A stretch of DNA of 41,280 nucleotides from a virus (Duplodnaviria; Heunggongvirae; Uroviricota; Caudoviricetes): the IMG/VR virus record IMGVR_UViG_2718218131_000003, positions 1-41,280 of that record; one strand, written 5' to 3'. A program made the translations under genes and the position numbers. Positions within the stretch are counted from its first letter, which is position 1, and every line of letters begins with the position of its first letter. Under the pieces are notes generated by a model. That model was not told where the DNA came from. It did not search any database and was given only the letters and a program-made list of their open reading frames with translations. Below, piece by piece: positions 9,056-23,443 of the stretch.

Positions 9056-9478
9056 ATGGCAAAAGTATTTACACAAGAAGAGCGGGAAAAAATTAAATGG
9101 CAGGTGGTGGAACTCGTGCGCCAGAGCGGCCGTGAGACGTTACGGCAACTGGAAGCTAAAACAGGTGCGACTAGATATCTGATGAGCGTTCTTGCCAGAG
9201 AGCTGGTAGCCAGTGGCGATGTATACAACTCCGGCTACGGGTTATTCCCCTCTGAACAGGCGCGTAAGGACTGGCAAAACGCCCGCAAAAAACTCTCGAG
9301 GGCAAAGGTGAAGAAACCTGCTGTGGTTGATCCGGACCTTATCTGGTCATCACCTGACGGAGAAATACGTCGCTACGACAGCCGCCTAAACATAATCTGT
9401 CGCGAGTGCCGGAAAAGCAAGGTTATGCAGCGTGTGCTGGCGTTTTATCAGGGTAATTTTCAGGAGGTGATGGCGTGA
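9056..9478 (+). CDS. hypothetical protein
   Basis: 140-aa ORF from the ATG at 9056 preceded by GGAGG (9046..9050); first gene of a chain of translationally coupled ORFs. Confidence 0.5.
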   Translation: MAKVFTQEEREKIKWQVVELVRQSGRETLRQLEAKTGATRYLMSVLARELVASGDVYNSGYGLFPSEQARKDWQNARKKLSRAKVKKPAVVDPDLIWSSPDGEIRRYDSRLNIICRECRKSKVMQRVLAFYQGNFQEVMA

Positions 9479-17723: not shown

Positions 17724-18257
17724 ATGAGCGCAAAAATCAAATACGGCCTGTCAGCTGCTGTTCTGGCGCTGATTGCTGCAGGCGCGTCTGCTCCTCAAAT
17801 ACTTGACCAGTTTCTGGATGAAAAAGAGGGTAACCACACTACGGCATACCGCGATGGTTCCGGTATATGGACCATCTGTCGTGGTGCCACAATGGTGGAT
17901 GGTAAGCCCGTCATACCGGGAATGAAGCTGTCGAAGGAAAAATGCGACCAGGTTAACGCTATTGAACGTGATAAGGCGCTGGCATGGGTGGAGCGCAATA
18001 TTAAAGTACCACTGACCGAACCACAGAAAGCGGGTATAGCGTCATTCTGTCCCTATAACATTGGCCCCGGTAAGTGTTTCCCGTCGACGTTTTATAAGCG
18101 GCTGAATGCCGGTGATCGTAAGGGCGCATGCGAGGCGATTCGCTGGTGGATAAAAGATGGTGGGCGCGATTGCCGCATACGTTCAAATAACTGCTATGGA
18201 CAGGTTATTCGTCGTGACCAGGAAAGCGCATTAGCCTGTTGGGGGATAGATCAGTGA
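17724..18257 (+). CDS. R: SAR endolysin (T4 lysozyme-like, GH24) of phage 21 R type
   Basis: 177 aa; N-terminal signal-anchor-release segment ([19 protein letters not shown]); catalytic E-x8-D-x5-T arrangement ([20 protein letters not shown]). Confidence 0.85.
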
Positions 18258-18721
18258 GCAGAGTCGCAGCGATTATTTATACTCTGGTTATCTGCACCAT
18301 CGTCTGCCTGTCGTGGGCGGTCAATCATTACCGTGATAACGCCATCACCTACAAAGAACAGCGTGATAAAAAAGTCAGTGAGCTGAAGCAGGTGACCGCC
18401 ACCATCGCTGACATGCAGCAGCGTCAGCGTGATGTTGCTGCGCTCGATGCAAAGTACTCGAGAGAATTAGCCAATGCGAAAGCTGAAAATGAAACTCTGC
18501 GCGCTGATGTTGCCGCTGGTCGTAAGCGCCTGCGGGTCAATGCCAGTTGCTCCGCAGCCGTGCGTGAAGCCACCGGACCCACCAGCGTGGATAATGCAAC
18601 CAGCCCCCGACTGGCAGACACCGCTGAACGGGATTATTTCATCCTCAGAGAACGGTTGATGACAATGCAGAAGCAGCTGGAAGGGGCACAGGACTATATC
18701 CGCACTCAGTGCCTGAACTAA
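18254..18721 (+). CDS. Rz: i-spanin Rz
   Basis: GTG start overlapping the endolysin stop (GTGA); N-terminal TM helix ([17 protein letters not shown]) followed by coiled-coil periplasmic domain. Confidence 0.75.
18474..18659 (+). CDS. Rz1: o-spanin Rz1 (lipoprotein) embedded in the +1 frame of Rz
   Basis: Signal peptide with lipobox LVVSAC, proline-rich mature part ([24 protein letters not shown]); entirely inside Rz in another frame. Confidence 0.7.
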
Positions 18722-19135
18722 GTTTTGCTGATGCGCCGTATCGTCACCGTATTCCTGCATTAACAGAGACCGCAGCCCGACAGGGAGACTCCTCTGCGAG
18801 AGTGTGCGGGGATAATCAAAAACGATACACACCGGGGTTTACCGCGTTAACGGAGCGCGGTGTTGTCCCCTCATAGTCGCCAGTCCGGTGCGATGGTGGA
18901 AGAAACTGGATTTTGTTGCAAATGATAACCATTATCATTTTTTGCGGGTCCTCCTGGTGGGGTGGGCCTGAACACGGGGCGGGCGGCGCGGAAAAAGGCG
19001 CATTTTTTGATTTTTATGGCACCATCACCACCAGTGTAAGTTATTGATATATAGAAAAATAAAAATTTTTAGTGTCGAATCTGGTTGTTTTTTGTTCATC
19101 ACTGGTGTGTGTTTACATAATTTTCAGGGGGAGTT

Positions 19136-19612
19136 ATGGATCGTGAATTAAAAAATCTGCATCTGAATATTTCCCAACTGGCCGCATTATCCGGTGCTCA
19201 TCGACAGACTGTTGCGGCTCGGGTAAAAAACATAAGCCCAGCCGGTGGTCATGAGAGCAATCTCAAACTGTACCGACTGACAGATATCCTTGCCGAGCTG
19301 ATGAAAGCTCCTCTGCCTGTAGATAACAAGGAAATGGATCCTCATGCGCGTAAAGCATGGTACCAGTCAGAACGTGACCGACTGAAATTTGAGCAGGAAA
19401 CTGGTCAGCTTGTGCCAGTCAGTGATGTCAGGCGGTCCTTTTCTGTCGTGGTGAAAGCGATAGTTCAGGTACTGGAAACCTGGCCTGACCGGCTGGAAAG
19501 GGACAGGGGGTGGACCGCATCACAACTGAATGAAGTACAGATTGTGGTTGATGAGATCCGCGATACACTGGAAAAGGCAGTCATTGACTGTTGTGATGAG
19601 GCCGATATGTGA
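19136..19612 (+). CDS. terminase small subunit (Nu1-like, N-terminal HTH)
   Basis: 158-aa ORF with N-terminal HTH (ISQLAALSGAHRQTVAARVKN), directly upstream of and overlapping the large terminase gene; preceded by a cos-like GC-rich segment. Confidence 0.7.
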   Translation: MDRELKNLHLNISQLAALSGAHRQTVAARVKNISPAGGHESNLKLYRLTDILAELMKAPLPVDNKEMDPHARKAWYQSERDRLKFEQETGQLVPVSDVRRSFSVVVKAIVQVLETWPDRLERDRGWTASQLNEVQIVVDEIRDTLEKAVIDCCDEADM

Positions 19613-21732
19613 ATCAGGTGAACGAGAGCCATAGCCGCGCATCCGATATCTGGCGCGAAGTGGCCTCGCTGTTTCGCCCACCCAGCCGGTTACCAGTAGC
19701 GGAAGCCATCAGGCGTTATATGCGGGTTCCACGGGGAGCCAATACTTCCGGTCCGTGGGAGTCATCGCTGACGCCCTATATGATTGACCCCATTAATACA
19801 TTATCAGCCCGTGAATATGACGCGGTGGTGTTTGTGGGACCTGCGCGAACCGGGAAAACCGAAGGGCTGATTGATGGCTGGATTGTGTACGGCATCATCT
19901 GTGATCCGGCGGATATGCTGGTGGTGCAGATGACTGAGACGAAGGCGCGTGAGCATTCCAGAACGCGTCTTTCCAGGACGTTTCGCCACAGTCCGGAGGT
20001 CAGCAAGCGCCTCAGTCCTTCCCGTAATGACAACAACGTCCACGATAAAATGTTTCTTGACGGCTCCTTCCTGAAGATTGGCTGGCCGTCGATCACCGTC
20101 TTTTCCTCTTCGGATTACCGTCGTGTGGCGCTGACGGATTATGACCGTTTCCCTGAAAATGTGGACGGGGAAGGGGATGCCTTCACGCTGGCCTCAAAGC
20201 GTACCACCACCTTTATGTCCTCGGGGATGACCCTGGTCGAGAGTTCACCGGGGCGGGATATCACCGATACCAAATGGCGTTGTGGTGGCGCACATGAGGC
20301 ACCGCCAACAACGGGGATCCTGTCACTGTATAACCGGGGAGACCGCCGCCGGTGGTACTGGCCGTGTCCGCACTGCGGGGAATATTTTCAGCCGGTGATG
20401 GATAACATGACCGGATACCGGAATAACCCGGATTTTGTGGCTGCCGGTCAGGCTGCCCGTCTGATGTGTCCGCATTGTCGCGGGCTGATTGCCCCTGAGC
20501 AGAAACGCGAACTGAATAACCAGGGGATCTGGCTTCGTGAAGGTGAACGGGCGGCGGCGGACGGCAGTATCACCGGAACGCCACGAAACTCCCGGATTGC
20601 GTCATTTTGGATGGAGGGGCCAGCTGCGGCGTTTCAGACCTGGGAACAACTGATTTTTAAACTGCTGGCGGCAGAAGAAGAGTATGAGCGAACCGGCAGT
20701 GAAGAGACCCTGAAAGCGGTGGTGAACACCGATATCGGACGACCCTATCTTCCCCGTTCAGCCACGGAACAGCGTAAAAGTGAACTGCTTGAACAGCGTG
20801 CCGAGCCGTTTCCCCGGCGATCTGTGCCGGATGGTGTGCGTTTTATTGAGGCAACGGTTGACGTACAGGGCGGTAAAAATCGCCGTTTTGTTGTGCAGAT
20901 CACCGGATACGGAGAGCAGGGGGAACGCTGGATTGTTGATCGCTACAACATCCGGCATTCACTGCGCTGCAGTCCCAACGGTGAAAGTCTGCCGGTTGAT
21001 CCGGCGGCATATCCGGAGGACTGGGATTTGTTGCTGACGGATGTGTTCCATAAAACATGGCCGCTGGCTTCTGATCCGGATGTGCGCATGCGTCTGATGG
21101 CCATGGCGGTGGATACGGGAGGGGAAGCCGGGGTGACAGATAACGCCTATCGTTTCTGGCGTCGTTGCCGGAGTGACGGACTGGGCAACAGGGTGTTTCT
21201 GTTCAAGGGGGATGGACTTCGCCGTGACAGGCTGATTAACCGAACCTTCCCGGATAATACCGGCAGAAGTGCCCGCCGTGCCAGAGCCAGTGGCGATGTC
21301 GCGCTGTGGCTGGTTCAGACGGATGCGTTTAAGGATCGTGTAAATAATGCCCTGTGGCGTGACACACCAGGGCCGAACTATATCCACTTTCCCGACTGGC
21401 TGGGGCGGTGGTTTTACGATGAGCTGACCTATGAAGAGCGCGGCAGTGACGGAAAATGGCGAAAACCGGGCAGGGGCGCTAACGAAGCGTTTGACCTGCT
21501 GGTTTATGCGGATGCGCTTGCCGTTCTGCATGGTTACGAAAAGATCCGCTGGCCCTCCGCACCGGACTGGGCACAGCGGGAAACGTGGCTCGTCTTCCCG
21601 CAGGAGCGTTCTGGTGAAACGGTATCCCCGGAACTGACGGCCGGGGCAGAAAAACGCCGTCGCCGGAAGAAAAAACTGCGGACGGAGCGTGCGGAAGATA
21701 ATCCATGGATAACATCAGGAGGCTGGTTGTGA
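19609..21732 (+). CDS. terminase large subunit (lambda gpA-like)
   Basis: 707-aa ORF; N-terminal layout like gpA (SLFRPPSRLPVAEAIRRY...), Walker-A-like GPARTGKTE, C-terminal nuclease region; GTG start overlapping the small-subunit stop. Confidence 0.85.
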   Translation: MNQVNESHSRASDIWREVASLFRPPSRLPVAEAIRRYMRVPRGANTSGPWESSLTPYMIDPINTLSAREYDAVVFVGPARTGKTEGLIDGWIVYGIICDPADMLVVQMTETKAREHSRTRLSRTFRHSPEVSKRLSPSRNDNNVHDKMFLDGSFLKIGWPSITVFSSSDYRRVALTDYDRFPENVDGEGDAFTLASKRTTTFMSSGMTLVESSPGRDITDTKWRCGGAHEAPPTTGILSLYNRGDRRRWYWPCPHCGEYFQPVMDNMTGYRNNPDFVAAGQAARLMCPHCRGLIAPEQKRELNNQGIWLREGERAAADGSITGTPRNSRIASFWMEGPAAAFQTWEQLIFKLLAAEEEYERTGSEETLKAVVNTDIGRPYLPRSATEQRKSELLEQRAEPFPRRSVPDGVRFIEATVDVQGGKNRRFVVQITGYGEQGERWIVDRYNIRHSLRCSPNGESLPVDPAAYPEDWDLLLTDVFHKTWPLASDPDVRMRLMAMAVDTGGEAGVTDNAYRFWRRCRSDGLGNRVFLFKGDGLRRDRLINRTFPDNTGRSARRARASGDVALWLVQTDAFKDRVNNALWRDTPGPNYIHFPDWLGRWFYDELTYEERGSDGKWRKPGRGANEAFDLLVYADALAVLHGYEKIRWPSAPDWAQRETWLVFPQERSGETVSPELTAGAEKRRRRKKKLRTERAEDNPWITSGGWL

Positions 21733-21941
21733 GCACAGAAGAAGCCAGAGAAATGATACAGCGGTACCGTGAAGCGGAAATGGCCGTACTGGAGGGAAAG
21801 TCTGTCACCTTCAACGGGCAGCAACTGACGCTGGAAAGCCTTTCTCAGATCCGCGCCGGACGTCAGGAGTGGGAACGCAGGCTTGCCGCGATGGTGAGCC
21901 GCAGGCGGGGAAAACCGGGATTTAAACTGGCGAGGTTTTAA
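21729..21941 (+). CDS. head-tail joining protein (lambda gpW-like)
   Basis: ~70 aa from a GTG overlapping the terminase stop; C-terminus RRGKPGFKLARF resembles the lambda W C-terminus; sits between terminase and portal. Confidence 0.65.
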   Translation: MSTEEAREMIQRYREAEMAVLEGKSVTFNGQQLTLESLSQIRAGRQEWERRLAAMVSRRRGKPGFKLARF

Positions 21942-23443
21942 TGGCAATTATTGATGATGTGATCGGCGTGTTTTCCCCCGGGTGGAAAGCAGCCAGACTG
22001 CGTTCAAGGGCGTTAATCATGGCCTATGAGGCGGTGAAACCGACCCGGACACATAAAGCCCGGCGGGAAAATCGCTCTGCTGATCAGCTCAGTAAATACG
22101 GTGCGGTTTCCCTGCGGGAGCAGGCCCGTTTTCTGGATATCAATCATGACCTGGTGATTGGTGTGTTTGACAAGCTGGAAGAGCGGGTGATTGGTGCCAG
22201 GGGAATTATTGTGGAGCCTCAGCCATTACGAAAAAACGGGGAAATGGCGGCTGAGCTGGCTGCGGATATCCGCCGTTTGTGGGCTGAATGGTCCGTGAGT
22301 CCGGATGTGACAGGGCAGTATACCCGTCCTGTGCTTGAACGTTTACTGCTGCGGACCTGGCTGCGGGATGGTGAAGTGTTTGCGCAGATGGTCAGTGGTG
22401 CGGGAAACGGTCTGGAACGGACGGCGGGAGTGCCATTCTGGCTTGAGGCGATGGAGCCGGATTTTGTTCCCATGCGCACTGATGAATCCGCCGGACTGAA
22501 TCAGGGGGTTTTTCTTGATGAGTGGGGAAGACCGAAAAAATATCTGGTTTATAAAAATTATCCGGTCAGCGGCCGGCAGAGTGATACGAAAGAAATCGCT
22601 GCCGGAAAAATGATCCACCTGAAGTTCACTCGTCGTCTGCATCAGACGCGAGGCTCATCCATGTTATCGGGGGTGCTGATGCGGATCAGTGCCCTTAAGG
22701 AGTATGAGGATGCGGAACTGACAGCGGCGCGTATTGCTGCGGCGCTGGGACTGTATATCCGTAAAGGTGACGGACAGGACTATGAAGATCCGGGGATCAA
22801 AGAGACTGAGCGGGAAGTCCATATCACCCCGGGTATTATTTATGACGATTTGCGCAAGGGCGAGGATATCGGCATGGTCAAATCTGACCGTCCCAATCCC
22901 AACCTTGAAACTTTCCGCAACGGCCAGTTGCGTGCAGTGGCAGCAGGCAGTCGTCTGAGTTTTTCCAGTGCGGCGCGTAACTATAACGGCACCTACAGCG
23001 CCCAGCGGCAGGAGCTGGTCGAGTCCACGGATGGTTACCTGATCCTGCAGGACTGTTTTATTGGCGCGGTAACCCGCCCGGTGTACCGGACATGGCTGAA
23101 TATGGTGGTTGCGGCAGGTCTGCTGAAAATTCCGGCGGATGTGGAGATGAAAACGCTATATAACGCGACGTATTCCGGTCCGGTGATGCCGTGGATCGAC
23201 CCGGTTAAGGAAGCTGAAGCCTGGAGAATTCAGATCCGGGGTGGTGCAGCGACAGAATCTGACTGGGTGCGTGCCGGTGGGCGCAATCCGGATGAGGTCA
23301 AACGTCGCCGCAAGGCTGAAATTGATGAAAACAGCAGACTGGGGCTGGTCTTTGATACTGACCCCGTCAACGACAAAGGAGGCAACAGTGCCGGAACTGA
23401 ACGACAGTATCAGCGCGACACCGAAAGCCAGCATGAAGAATAA
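21941..23443 (+). CDS. portal protein
   Basis: 500-aa ORF immediately after W and before the protease/capsid gene; size and position of the lambda-family portal. Confidence 0.7.
   Translation: MAIIDDVIGVFSPGWKAARLRSRALIMAYEAVKPTRTHKARRENRSADQLSKYGAVSLREQARFLDINHDLVIGVFDKLEERVIGARGIIVEPQPLRKNGEMAAELAADIRRLWAEWSVSPDVTGQYTRPVLERLLLRTWLRDGEVFAQMVSGAGNGLERTAGVPFWLEAMEPDFVPMRTDESAGLNQGVFLDEWGRPKKYLVYKNYPVSGRQSDTKEIAAGKMIHLKFTRRLHQTRGSSMLSGVLMRISALKEYEDAELTAARIAAALGLYIRKGDGQDYEDPGIKETEREVHITPGIIYDDLRKGEDIGMVKSDRPNPNLETFRNGQLRAVAAGSRLSFSSAARNYNGTYSAQRQELVESTDGYLILQDCFIGAVTRPVYRTWLNMVVAAGLLKIPADVEMKTLYNATYSGPVMPWIDPVKEAEAWRIQIRGGAATESDWVRAGGRNPDEVKRRRKAEIDENSRLGLVFDTDPVNDKGGNSAGTERQYQRDTESQHEE

Follow-up and report, generated by a model that had tools for sequence, protein, structure and literature searches.

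Why should a phage carry, at the point where its lysis genes give way to its packaging genes, a site that reads like an operator for the host iron sensor Fur? The question is raised by a palindrome in a 41,280-nt stretch of Caudoviricetes DNA (IMG/VR record IMGVR_UViG_2718218131_000003; "the window" below is this whole stretch), which is followed by a GC-rich element in the interval between the spanin gene Rz, ending at 18721, and the open reading frame (ORF) in the small-terminase position, starting at 19136. A first-pass annotation had placed both elements in this interval correctly, but had numbered them loosely. The palindrome it quoted is present exactly, at 18920–18940 rather than 18922–18942; the GC element ACGGGGCGGGCGGCGCGG is present too, at 18974–18991, about 21 nt to the right of the ~18953–18970 given for it, such that an annotated end at 18975 misses most of it. 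As to identity, the 18920–18991 region is the left edge of the cos site in a lambda-like prophage of Shiga toxin-producing Escherichia coli (STEC), and its palindrome is one more copy of a known element whose counterparts in E. coli K-12 have been shown to bind Fur. What bound Fur would do there is a separate matter, for which our proposal is more tentative. The parts of this edge are, from left to right:

18920–18940, no strand: Fur box, a perfect 9-3-9 palindrome, AAATGATAA-CCA-TTATCATTT (inverted repeat, 100% complementary).
18923–18937: 7-1-7 core of the box, TGATAAC-C-ATTATCA.
18938–18945, plus strand: T-run linker TTTTTTGC, from the box core to cosQ.
18946–18952, plus strand: cosQ heptamer GGGTCCT, the packaging-termination subsite.
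18972–18993, no strand: cosN, by likeness to lambda cosN, with nick positions inferred.
19029–19107, no strand: cosB-like segment, from the sequence features of an inverted repeat and an IHF consensus.

The Fur reading begins with the consensus. The core agrees with TGATAAT-N-ATTATCA at 13 of the 14 specified positions, so the single mismatch reported by the first-pass annotation stands, and 12 validated K-12 Fur sites have between one and three mismatches each to the same 7-1-7 consensus. At two mismatches or fewer the core is the sole match in all 41,280 nt, where 0.07 would be expected; among shuffled windows, 7 of 100 yield a match at that threshold. A finer measure is provided by a symmetric matrix of 21 columns, built from 12 K-12 sites with footprint or gel-shift support (Table 4 of Chen et al. 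2007), from which nohA and nohB were left out. The matrix is small, yet its ranking of the DLP12 site above the Qin site agrees with Chen's values. On this scale the box at 18920–18940 scores 28.3 bits, near the top of the leave-one-out range of the training sites (19.8–28.7 bits), while the runner-up among the 21-mers of the window reaches 8.8 bits against a background mean of -30. Copies at other cos sites score as follows:

phi80 box: 29.6 bits.
434 and DLP12 box: 26.2 bits.
Phage 21 box: 22.0 bits.
N15 box: 21.3 bits.
Lambda and Qin box: 21.0 bits.
Gifsy-1: 3.5 bits.

Fur sites of this kind are already catalogued in K-12 (Stojiljkovic 1994; Vassinova & Kozyrev 2000). Chen et al. 2007 (PMC2189734) describe a strong Fur site 233 bp upstream of nohA in the Qin prophage (22.3 bits), which was found by in vivo selection of Fur-binding fragments and gel-shifted with 150 nM Fur, and a second strong site upstream of nohB in the DLP12 prophage (25.3 bits), which they credit to Stojiljkovic et al., who used a Fur titration assay. 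A chromatin immunoprecipitation sequencing (ChIP-seq) study of FNR lists a peak summit at 1634625, which is 1 bp away from the Qin box; the entry stands among known Fur-bound operons that are Fur-repressed. Chen's coordinates fall exactly on palindrome centres in NC_000913.3, at 1636600 for Qin (TGATAAT-C-ATTATCA) and 580601 for DLP12 (nohB/nohD; TGATAAT-T-ATTATCA), and in both prophages GGGTCCT lies 6 bp past the box and is followed by cosN. Because the K-12 sites share its position relative to cosQ and cosN, the window palindrome is taken to be orthologous to the nohA and nohB sites, one element directly left of cosQ. The likeness extends through the 7-1-7 palindrome, the T-run, GGGTCCT 6–8 nt on, cosN, cosB and a small-terminase gene, and the matrix score of the window copy is comparable or higher (28.3 bits versus 26.2 for DLP12 and 21.0 for Qin). 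There are differences also: one core base is changed (TGATAAC versus TGATAAT), the gap to cosQ is 8 nt rather than 6, the small-terminase gene is of the DUF1441 family instead of a Nu1 homologue, and no DLP12-like -35 hexamer is present. Furthermore, the window prophage appears intact, whereas Qin and DLP12 are cryptic.

Taken with its consensus match and top-range score, this orthology to bound sites identifies the palindrome, as judged from its bases, as a high-affinity Fur-type operator, in line with the Fur-box reading of the first-pass annotation. Dimers of Fe2+-Fur very probably occupy the window copy in iron-replete cells.

The element is not confined to K-12 prophages. Lambda itself carries a perfect but unannotated box, TGATAAT-C-ATTATCA at 48452–48466, 6 bp before GGGTCCT, and the Qin sequence is the lambda sequence across the stretch from box to cosQ. 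In the curated records of phages 21, 434 and phi80, cosQ is annotated and the palindrome is not, and in the literature we searched no paper mentions both Fur and cosQ. That a nohA/nohB-type Fur site abuts cosQ, conserved in lambda and most of its relatives, therefore seems to have gone unremarked. Near the right end of lambda (~48300–48370) there is also a leftward DUF3950 ORF (MSTKNRTRRTTTRNIRFPNQMIEQINIALEQKGSGNF...), which starts about 170 nt from cosQ, diverges from Nu1 with the Fur box between them, and is unannotated in the portion of NC_001416 examined; its counterparts are ynfO in Qin, ylcI in DLP12 and CPT_434B_77 in 434.

The second half of the identification concerns cos. The heptamer at 18946–18952, which the first-pass annotation had passed over although it lies between the palindrome and cosN, is identical to lambda 48473–48479 and to cosQ as annotated in phages 21 and 434; the 7-bp cosQ is known to be highly conserved (PMC4669245). 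Its first base lies 31 nt from the predicted top-strand nick, compared with 30 nt in lambda. The GC element falls within cosN and is the cosN of a lambda-type cos, the staggered-nick site of a gpA-type terminase, as the cos-like reading of the first-pass annotation had suggested. From its likeness to lambda, nicks are predicted after 18976 on the top strand and after 18988 on the bottom strand, which would leave a 12-nt 5' cohesive end, GGGCGGGCGGCG (18977–18988), with CG on both sides. The stretch 18974–18990 thus reads ACG/GGGCGGGCGGCG/CG, combining a conserved left half, GGGCGG, with a CG flanking each nick position. In direct comparison, the right end of lambda runs ...GATGATAATCATTATCACTTTAC GGGTCCT TTCCGGTGATCCGACAGGTT ACG and its left end begins GGGCGGCGACCT CGCGGG, while the window runs ...AAATGATAACCATTATCATTTTTTGC GGGTCCT CCTGGTGGGGTGGGCCTGAAC ACG GGGCGGGCGGCG CGG. 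The left half of cosN and the flanking ACG are the same as in lambda (...ACG/GGGCGGCGACCT), and so are the flanking CG dinucleotides; the predicted cohesive end departs from that of lambda at five of the six right-half positions (GGGCGGGCGGCG versus GGGCGGCGACCT). Variation in the right half of cosN with a conserved flanking CG has been described for this phage group by Feiss and colleagues (PMC4669245). The nearest support for these ends, an indirect one, comes from phage LLS, of the same large-terminase (TerL) clade as the window, whose record annotates a 5' end GGGCGGCGCGCT and terminates in ...CCACG. The record of mEp460_4F5, a phage of the boxless class, is cut 5 nt left of the predicted nick and is uninformative on ends.

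To the right of cosN, inverted 8-mers, CACCAGTG (19029–19036) and CACTGGTG (19100–19107), enclose an IHF consensus, TATCAATAACTTA, at 19037–19049 on the minus strand. This cosB-like layout would resemble the lambda R3-I1-R2 arrangement given in PMC4669245, in that an IHF consensus sits between inverted repeats; the repeats themselves are unrelated to the lambda R sites, and the small-terminase (TerS) family is different. By sequence, then, the locus has each mark of a lambda-type cos: cosQ, cosN, a cosB layout, and terS, a gpA-family terL and a portal gene downstream. Like that of lambda, the site lies between Rz and the terminase genes, with a Fur-type palindrome just left of cosQ.

The IHF consensus also bears on the alternative that the first-pass annotation had kept in reserve, namely that the palindrome is a binding site for IHF or for the small terminase. 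The palindrome is AT-rich and adjoins cos, where both proteins act. However, it holds no WATCAANNNNTTR consensus, the only match in the window being the one in cosB, and the same box accompanies Nu1-type TerS proteins (36–99% identity to lambda Nu1) and DUF1441-type TerS proteins, whose cosB specificities differ. With the palindrome constant across TerS families and divergent TerL clades, this fallback is scarcely credible.

The full order at the site is Fur box, T-run, cosQ, 21-nt spacer, cosN, cosB-like segment, terS, terL and portal, and the genes on either side are:

18239–18721, plus strand: Rz spanin gene, from the ORF list (Pfam Phage_lysis, E = 8.5e-50).
18474–18659: Rz1, embedded in Rz.
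19136–19612, plus strand: small-terminase-position gene, DUF1441 family (PF07278, E = 3.8e-49).
19609–21732, plus strand: large terminase, gpA family, with ATPase and endonuclease domains (PF05876, E = 1.8e-81; PF20454, E = 6.2e-84).
21941–23443: lambda-family portal, after terL (PF05136, E = 2.8e-80).

Rz is the final lysis gene on the left side of cos, and left of it lie genes for a P21-type holin, a DUF1327 protein and lysozyme. The DUF1441 gene is not of the Nu1 family, and its relatives carry the annotation "terminase small subunit". The TerL of the window, whose partner it is, shares only 22–25% identity with the lambda-type TerLs at related cos loci. The module is common: it was matched in 673 of 5,426 complete E. 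coli genomes, and the O121 strain RM8352 is 100% identical to it.

Other observations concern the DNA near the box. Between the Rz stop and the palindrome lies a GC-rich noncoding block of about 130 nt (18790–18915), which is near-invariant across eight loci with differing cos and terminase modules; only the ~10 nt separating this block from the Fur box are hypervariable. The block has no Rfam match and folds no better than shuffles (z = -1.2), and an Rfam search of 18500–19300 returned nothing at E <= 1. An exact 9-nt direct repeat, CATTTTTTG, occurs at 18936–18944 and 19001–19009, the first copy overlapping the Fur box at its end, the second after cosN, so that the pair, spaced by 65 nt, flanks cosQ-cosN; this may be chance.

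Is the palindrome, then, an oddity of this prophage? The first-pass annotation had thought an iron-responsive element at a lysis/packaging boundary unusual, a view that the following survey, and the K-12 catalogue entries for nohA and nohB, overturn. Sites were drawn from viral contigs by cosQ and left cosN only, blind to the palindrome. In 40 of the 68 sites so obtained a palindrome with three mismatches or fewer lies within 30 nt before cosQ, compared with 0–1 of 68 in twelve control intervals and 0.5 predicted from shuffles. With named phages added, the box is found at 59 of 107 distinct cos sites, across 27 unrelated upstream-flank families, always 3–8 nt from cosQ with a mode of 6. Information in the flanks is ~0–0.4 bit at -25 to -6 and rises steeply at the box; an AA before and a TTT after the 15-mer are conserved also, though both lie outside the selection criteria. 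Lambda, 434, 21, phi80, N15, DLP12 and Qin all carry the box, as do a Klebsiella phage, Citrobacter phage Chris1 and a locus with a Gifsy-1-type terminase. A wider pattern scan of genome contigs for GGGTCCT-N15-30-ACGGGGCGG gave no usable host range, being dominated by chance matches in high-GC genomes.

Some individual loci deserve mention. In Chris1 (locus L265, ON041214) a 21-bit Fur-like box, AAATGACAATATTTCTCATTT, is kept at ~9165–9185, while the cosQ position reads AGGTACT and cosN differs (CCGAGGGGGCGAGG), such that the box is better conserved than cosQ. Gifsy-1 (L249, NC_010392) has no Fur box; there, and at L028, a palindrome TGTTATA-T-TGTAACA lies ~21–35 nt before cosQ, which we take to resemble a Zur-type box. 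Locus L030, whose Gifsy-1-type terminase region is 98.9% identical, nonetheless has a Fur-type box. The T-rich tract at -8 to -4 before cosQ is kept in 19 palindrome-less flank families (T fraction 0.47–0.68), and the corresponding tract in the window, 18938–18943, may perhaps be part of an extended cosQ context.

Conservation of a palindrome need not mean conservation of Fur binding, and the substitutions are informative here. To control for ascertainment, natural sites with k mismatches were compared with random variants bearing the same k. The natural sites sum to 540 on the Fur matrix, the random ones to 487 +/- 9, and none of 2000 random sets reaches 540, with the caveat that the cores are not all mutually independent. 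The dominant classes of substitution are the same in the phage sites as in chromosomal Fur sites. This pattern indicates selection for the binding of Fur or of another protein that shares its specificity. Since the box does not change among unrelated TerS families, or among TerL clades of only 22–25% identity, a host factor is the most parsimonious candidate.

The same observations speak against a reading of the palindrome and T-run as an intrinsic terminator that closes the lysis cassette. There is indeed a hairpin with TTTTTT after it, and satellites, as discussed below, have a genuine GC-rich terminator at the same position. The hairpin of the window is weak, however (-7.4 kcal/mol, one G-C pair in the stem), folding of the palindrome (z = -1.7), like that of the spacer from Rz to cosQ (z = -1.2), is no better than that of shuffles, a terminator scan gives no match, and the box copy of lambda has no T-run. 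It is the base sequence, with Fur-like substitutions, that is conserved across sites, and not the pairing. We rejected this candidate, which is hardly tenable.

Might the box have no present function in the phage, being either a linker kept by mosaic recombination or a hitch-hiking operator of left-hand moron genes such as DUF3950? The flank family of the window lends this idea some weight: one left block, which starts at the end of Rz and takes in the box and cosQ, is found with three or more distinct cosN/cosB/TerS modules, so that box and cosQ form an invariant island with mosaic junctions to its left and right. In the lambda/434/DLP12 family the left neighbour of the box is the leftward DUF3950 gene, at the short distance given above for lambda, and the box is missing from a third of phages. 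On the other hand, most flank families have Rz or an unrelated rightward ORF on the left, the scans predict no promoter in the leftward direction, and the box retains its Fur-like substitution pattern while the flanks are unconserved. An inert or hitch-hiking box is very unlikely.

The invariant island is equally the starting point for a role in packaging itself, in which Fur or terminase bound 3–8 bp before cosQ acts on the packaging reaction. For example, the bound protein could serve as a "speed bump" that slows the motor before cosQ-cosN for efficient termination nicking, or it could assist in handling the right chromosome end, which is last packaged and first injected. In favour of such a role are the unvarying proximity of box and cosQ across 27 flank families and several genera, and the retention of the box in Chris1 despite a diverged cosQ. 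Genetics from the Feiss laboratory reportedly show cosQ defects to be suppressed by slower translocation, which would favour it too. The spacing, however, varies by 5 nt, half a helical turn, and the needs of termination have been defined as cosQ, cosN and I2 only (PMC4669245). A genome-wide Keio screen for host genes needed by lambda named 57 without mention of fur, which is weak evidence that Fur is dispensable for plaques.

The box is linked to terminase genes: it precedes 40 of 62 cos sites that are followed by TerL and 3 of 16 that are not. Of the satellites resembling phage-inducible chromosomal islands (PICIs), few have it, despite near-identical cosQ-cosN: loci L058, which holds an integrase, a D5 primase, a Nu1-like gene and a capsid gene, and L112 show 0–1 differences from the window across cosQ-cosN. 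In place of the box they carry a GC-rich hairpin and T-run (-14 to -16 kcal/mol), with the stem ending 6–7 nt before cosQ:

Satellite-like loci with a GC hairpin before cosQ: L058, L112, L048, L018, L087, L091, L113, L031 and L088.

At several satellite-like loci there are two or three cos sites, oppositely oriented, an arrangement also reported for EcCICFT073. The EcCICFT073-type PICI cos (PMC6739421, PMC9026076) likewise has cosQ and cosN near-identical to those of helper phages, but a GC-rich hairpin and T-run instead of the Fur box, and no TerL downstream. One apparent phage with the TerL of the window and a terminator in place of the box, L076, was set aside; its TerL ORF is truncated (373 aa) and the locus has the look of a satellite/prophage junction.

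Because satellites and a third of phages manage without it, the box is not required for packaging; it is an accessory linked to the terminase module, outside the packaging signal proper. A direct action on packaging also fits poorly with the PICI-like satellites, and with the 22 phages with a TerL, in which an identical or near-identical cosQ-cosN is used in the absence of a box; we judge it unlikely.

The scarcity of the box in helper-dependent satellites would also suit a Fur decoy, in which phage sites, replicated to ~100 copies, would titrate Fur and thereby relieve, in part, the repression of iron-uptake and related genes of the host, to the advantage of the phage. Their matrix scores reach the top of the range, and the evidence cited for the nohB site is a Fur titration assay, in which cloned sites are recognised by their titration of Fur in vivo. 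Each genome, however, has a single site, and a decoy leaves its fixed place beside cosQ unexplained. Moreover, Fur is present in thousands of copies per cell, of which ~100 phage genomes would bind a small fraction. A decoy function is accordingly highly improbable.

There remains the possibility that bound Fur silences transcription at cos and the terminase genes, which we prefer, if tentatively and at somewhat below even expectation. The choice is made because of two observations. Only one function has an experimental claim to it, namely repression by Fur of the Nu1 homologue that lies downstream in K-12, nohA being listed as Fur-repressed; and DLP12 has a rightward promoter-like site, GTGACA-16-TATCAT (10/12), whose -10 is the right half of the box. 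The DLP12 site lies at 2083–2110 of locus L123 (~580582–580609 of NC_000913.3), transcription from it would start at about cosQ, and the sequence in 434 is identical. In the proposed mechanism, bound Fur would occlude the box's own -10-like hexamers, or block RNA polymerase unmodified by Q, or both, such that transcription originating to the left would be barred from cos and the terminase genes in the lysogen, whose chromosome could otherwise be cut at cos by stray terminase. Late transcription, antiterminated by Q, would override the block. Tight linkage to cosQ would reflect selection for the box to remain with the terminase module amid rampant mosaic recombination. Silencing fits the rarity of the box in satellites, because satellites have no terminase.

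Several results weigh against this proposal. Promoter scans find nothing promoter-like in either the window or Qin, the latter being the lambda sequence here, and -35 hexamers at promoter spacing are not enriched over the 27 flank families (2.41 versus 2.5–2.7 at control offsets); a conserved Fur-repressed promoter is thus not a general explanation. Substitute terminators are rare in boxless phages (2 of 22), those that abut cosQ being confined to satellite-like elements, so a transcription stop left of cos finds no support from complementarity. The 22 boxless sites among the 62 followed by TerL mean that roughly one complete phage in three lacks the element, and the constant, tight adjacency to cosQ is explained only indirectly, by way of linkage to the terminase module. 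Overall, the combination of cos edge, Fur operator and silencing is our best explanation of the locus, and one that we regard as evenly poised.

A host Fur operator in the late region of a lambdoid phage has a familiar parallel. Stx1-converting phages have one at the Fur-repressed stx1 promoter, where the box governs a single defined promoter, that of the toxin, in the interval from Q to the lysis genes. The box of the window differs in that it sits beside cosQ, without an identified promoter or target gene.

As far as the window is concerned, the outcome is chiefly one of clarification: the two elements mark the cos site of an STEC prophage that is common. Its wider interest is that two literatures have described adjacent base pairs with no mutual citation: the Fur-regulon lists hold nohA and nohB, and the packaging field holds cosQ, 6 bp away. 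Conservation in more than half of the sampled cos sites, together with Fur-like substitutions, implies selection for Fur binding in active phages. It is doubtful, yet conceivable, that the Fur box functions as a fourth subsite of cos in lambdoid phages. If so, Fe2+-Fur bound 3–8 bp left of cosQ would couple the iron status of the host to terminase expression, termination efficiency or right-end handling, and a global metal sensor of the host would be a built-in accessory of lambda-type packaging, overlooked for decades. The question that results, what an iron sensor does at a packaging site, can be tested cheaply in lambda itself.

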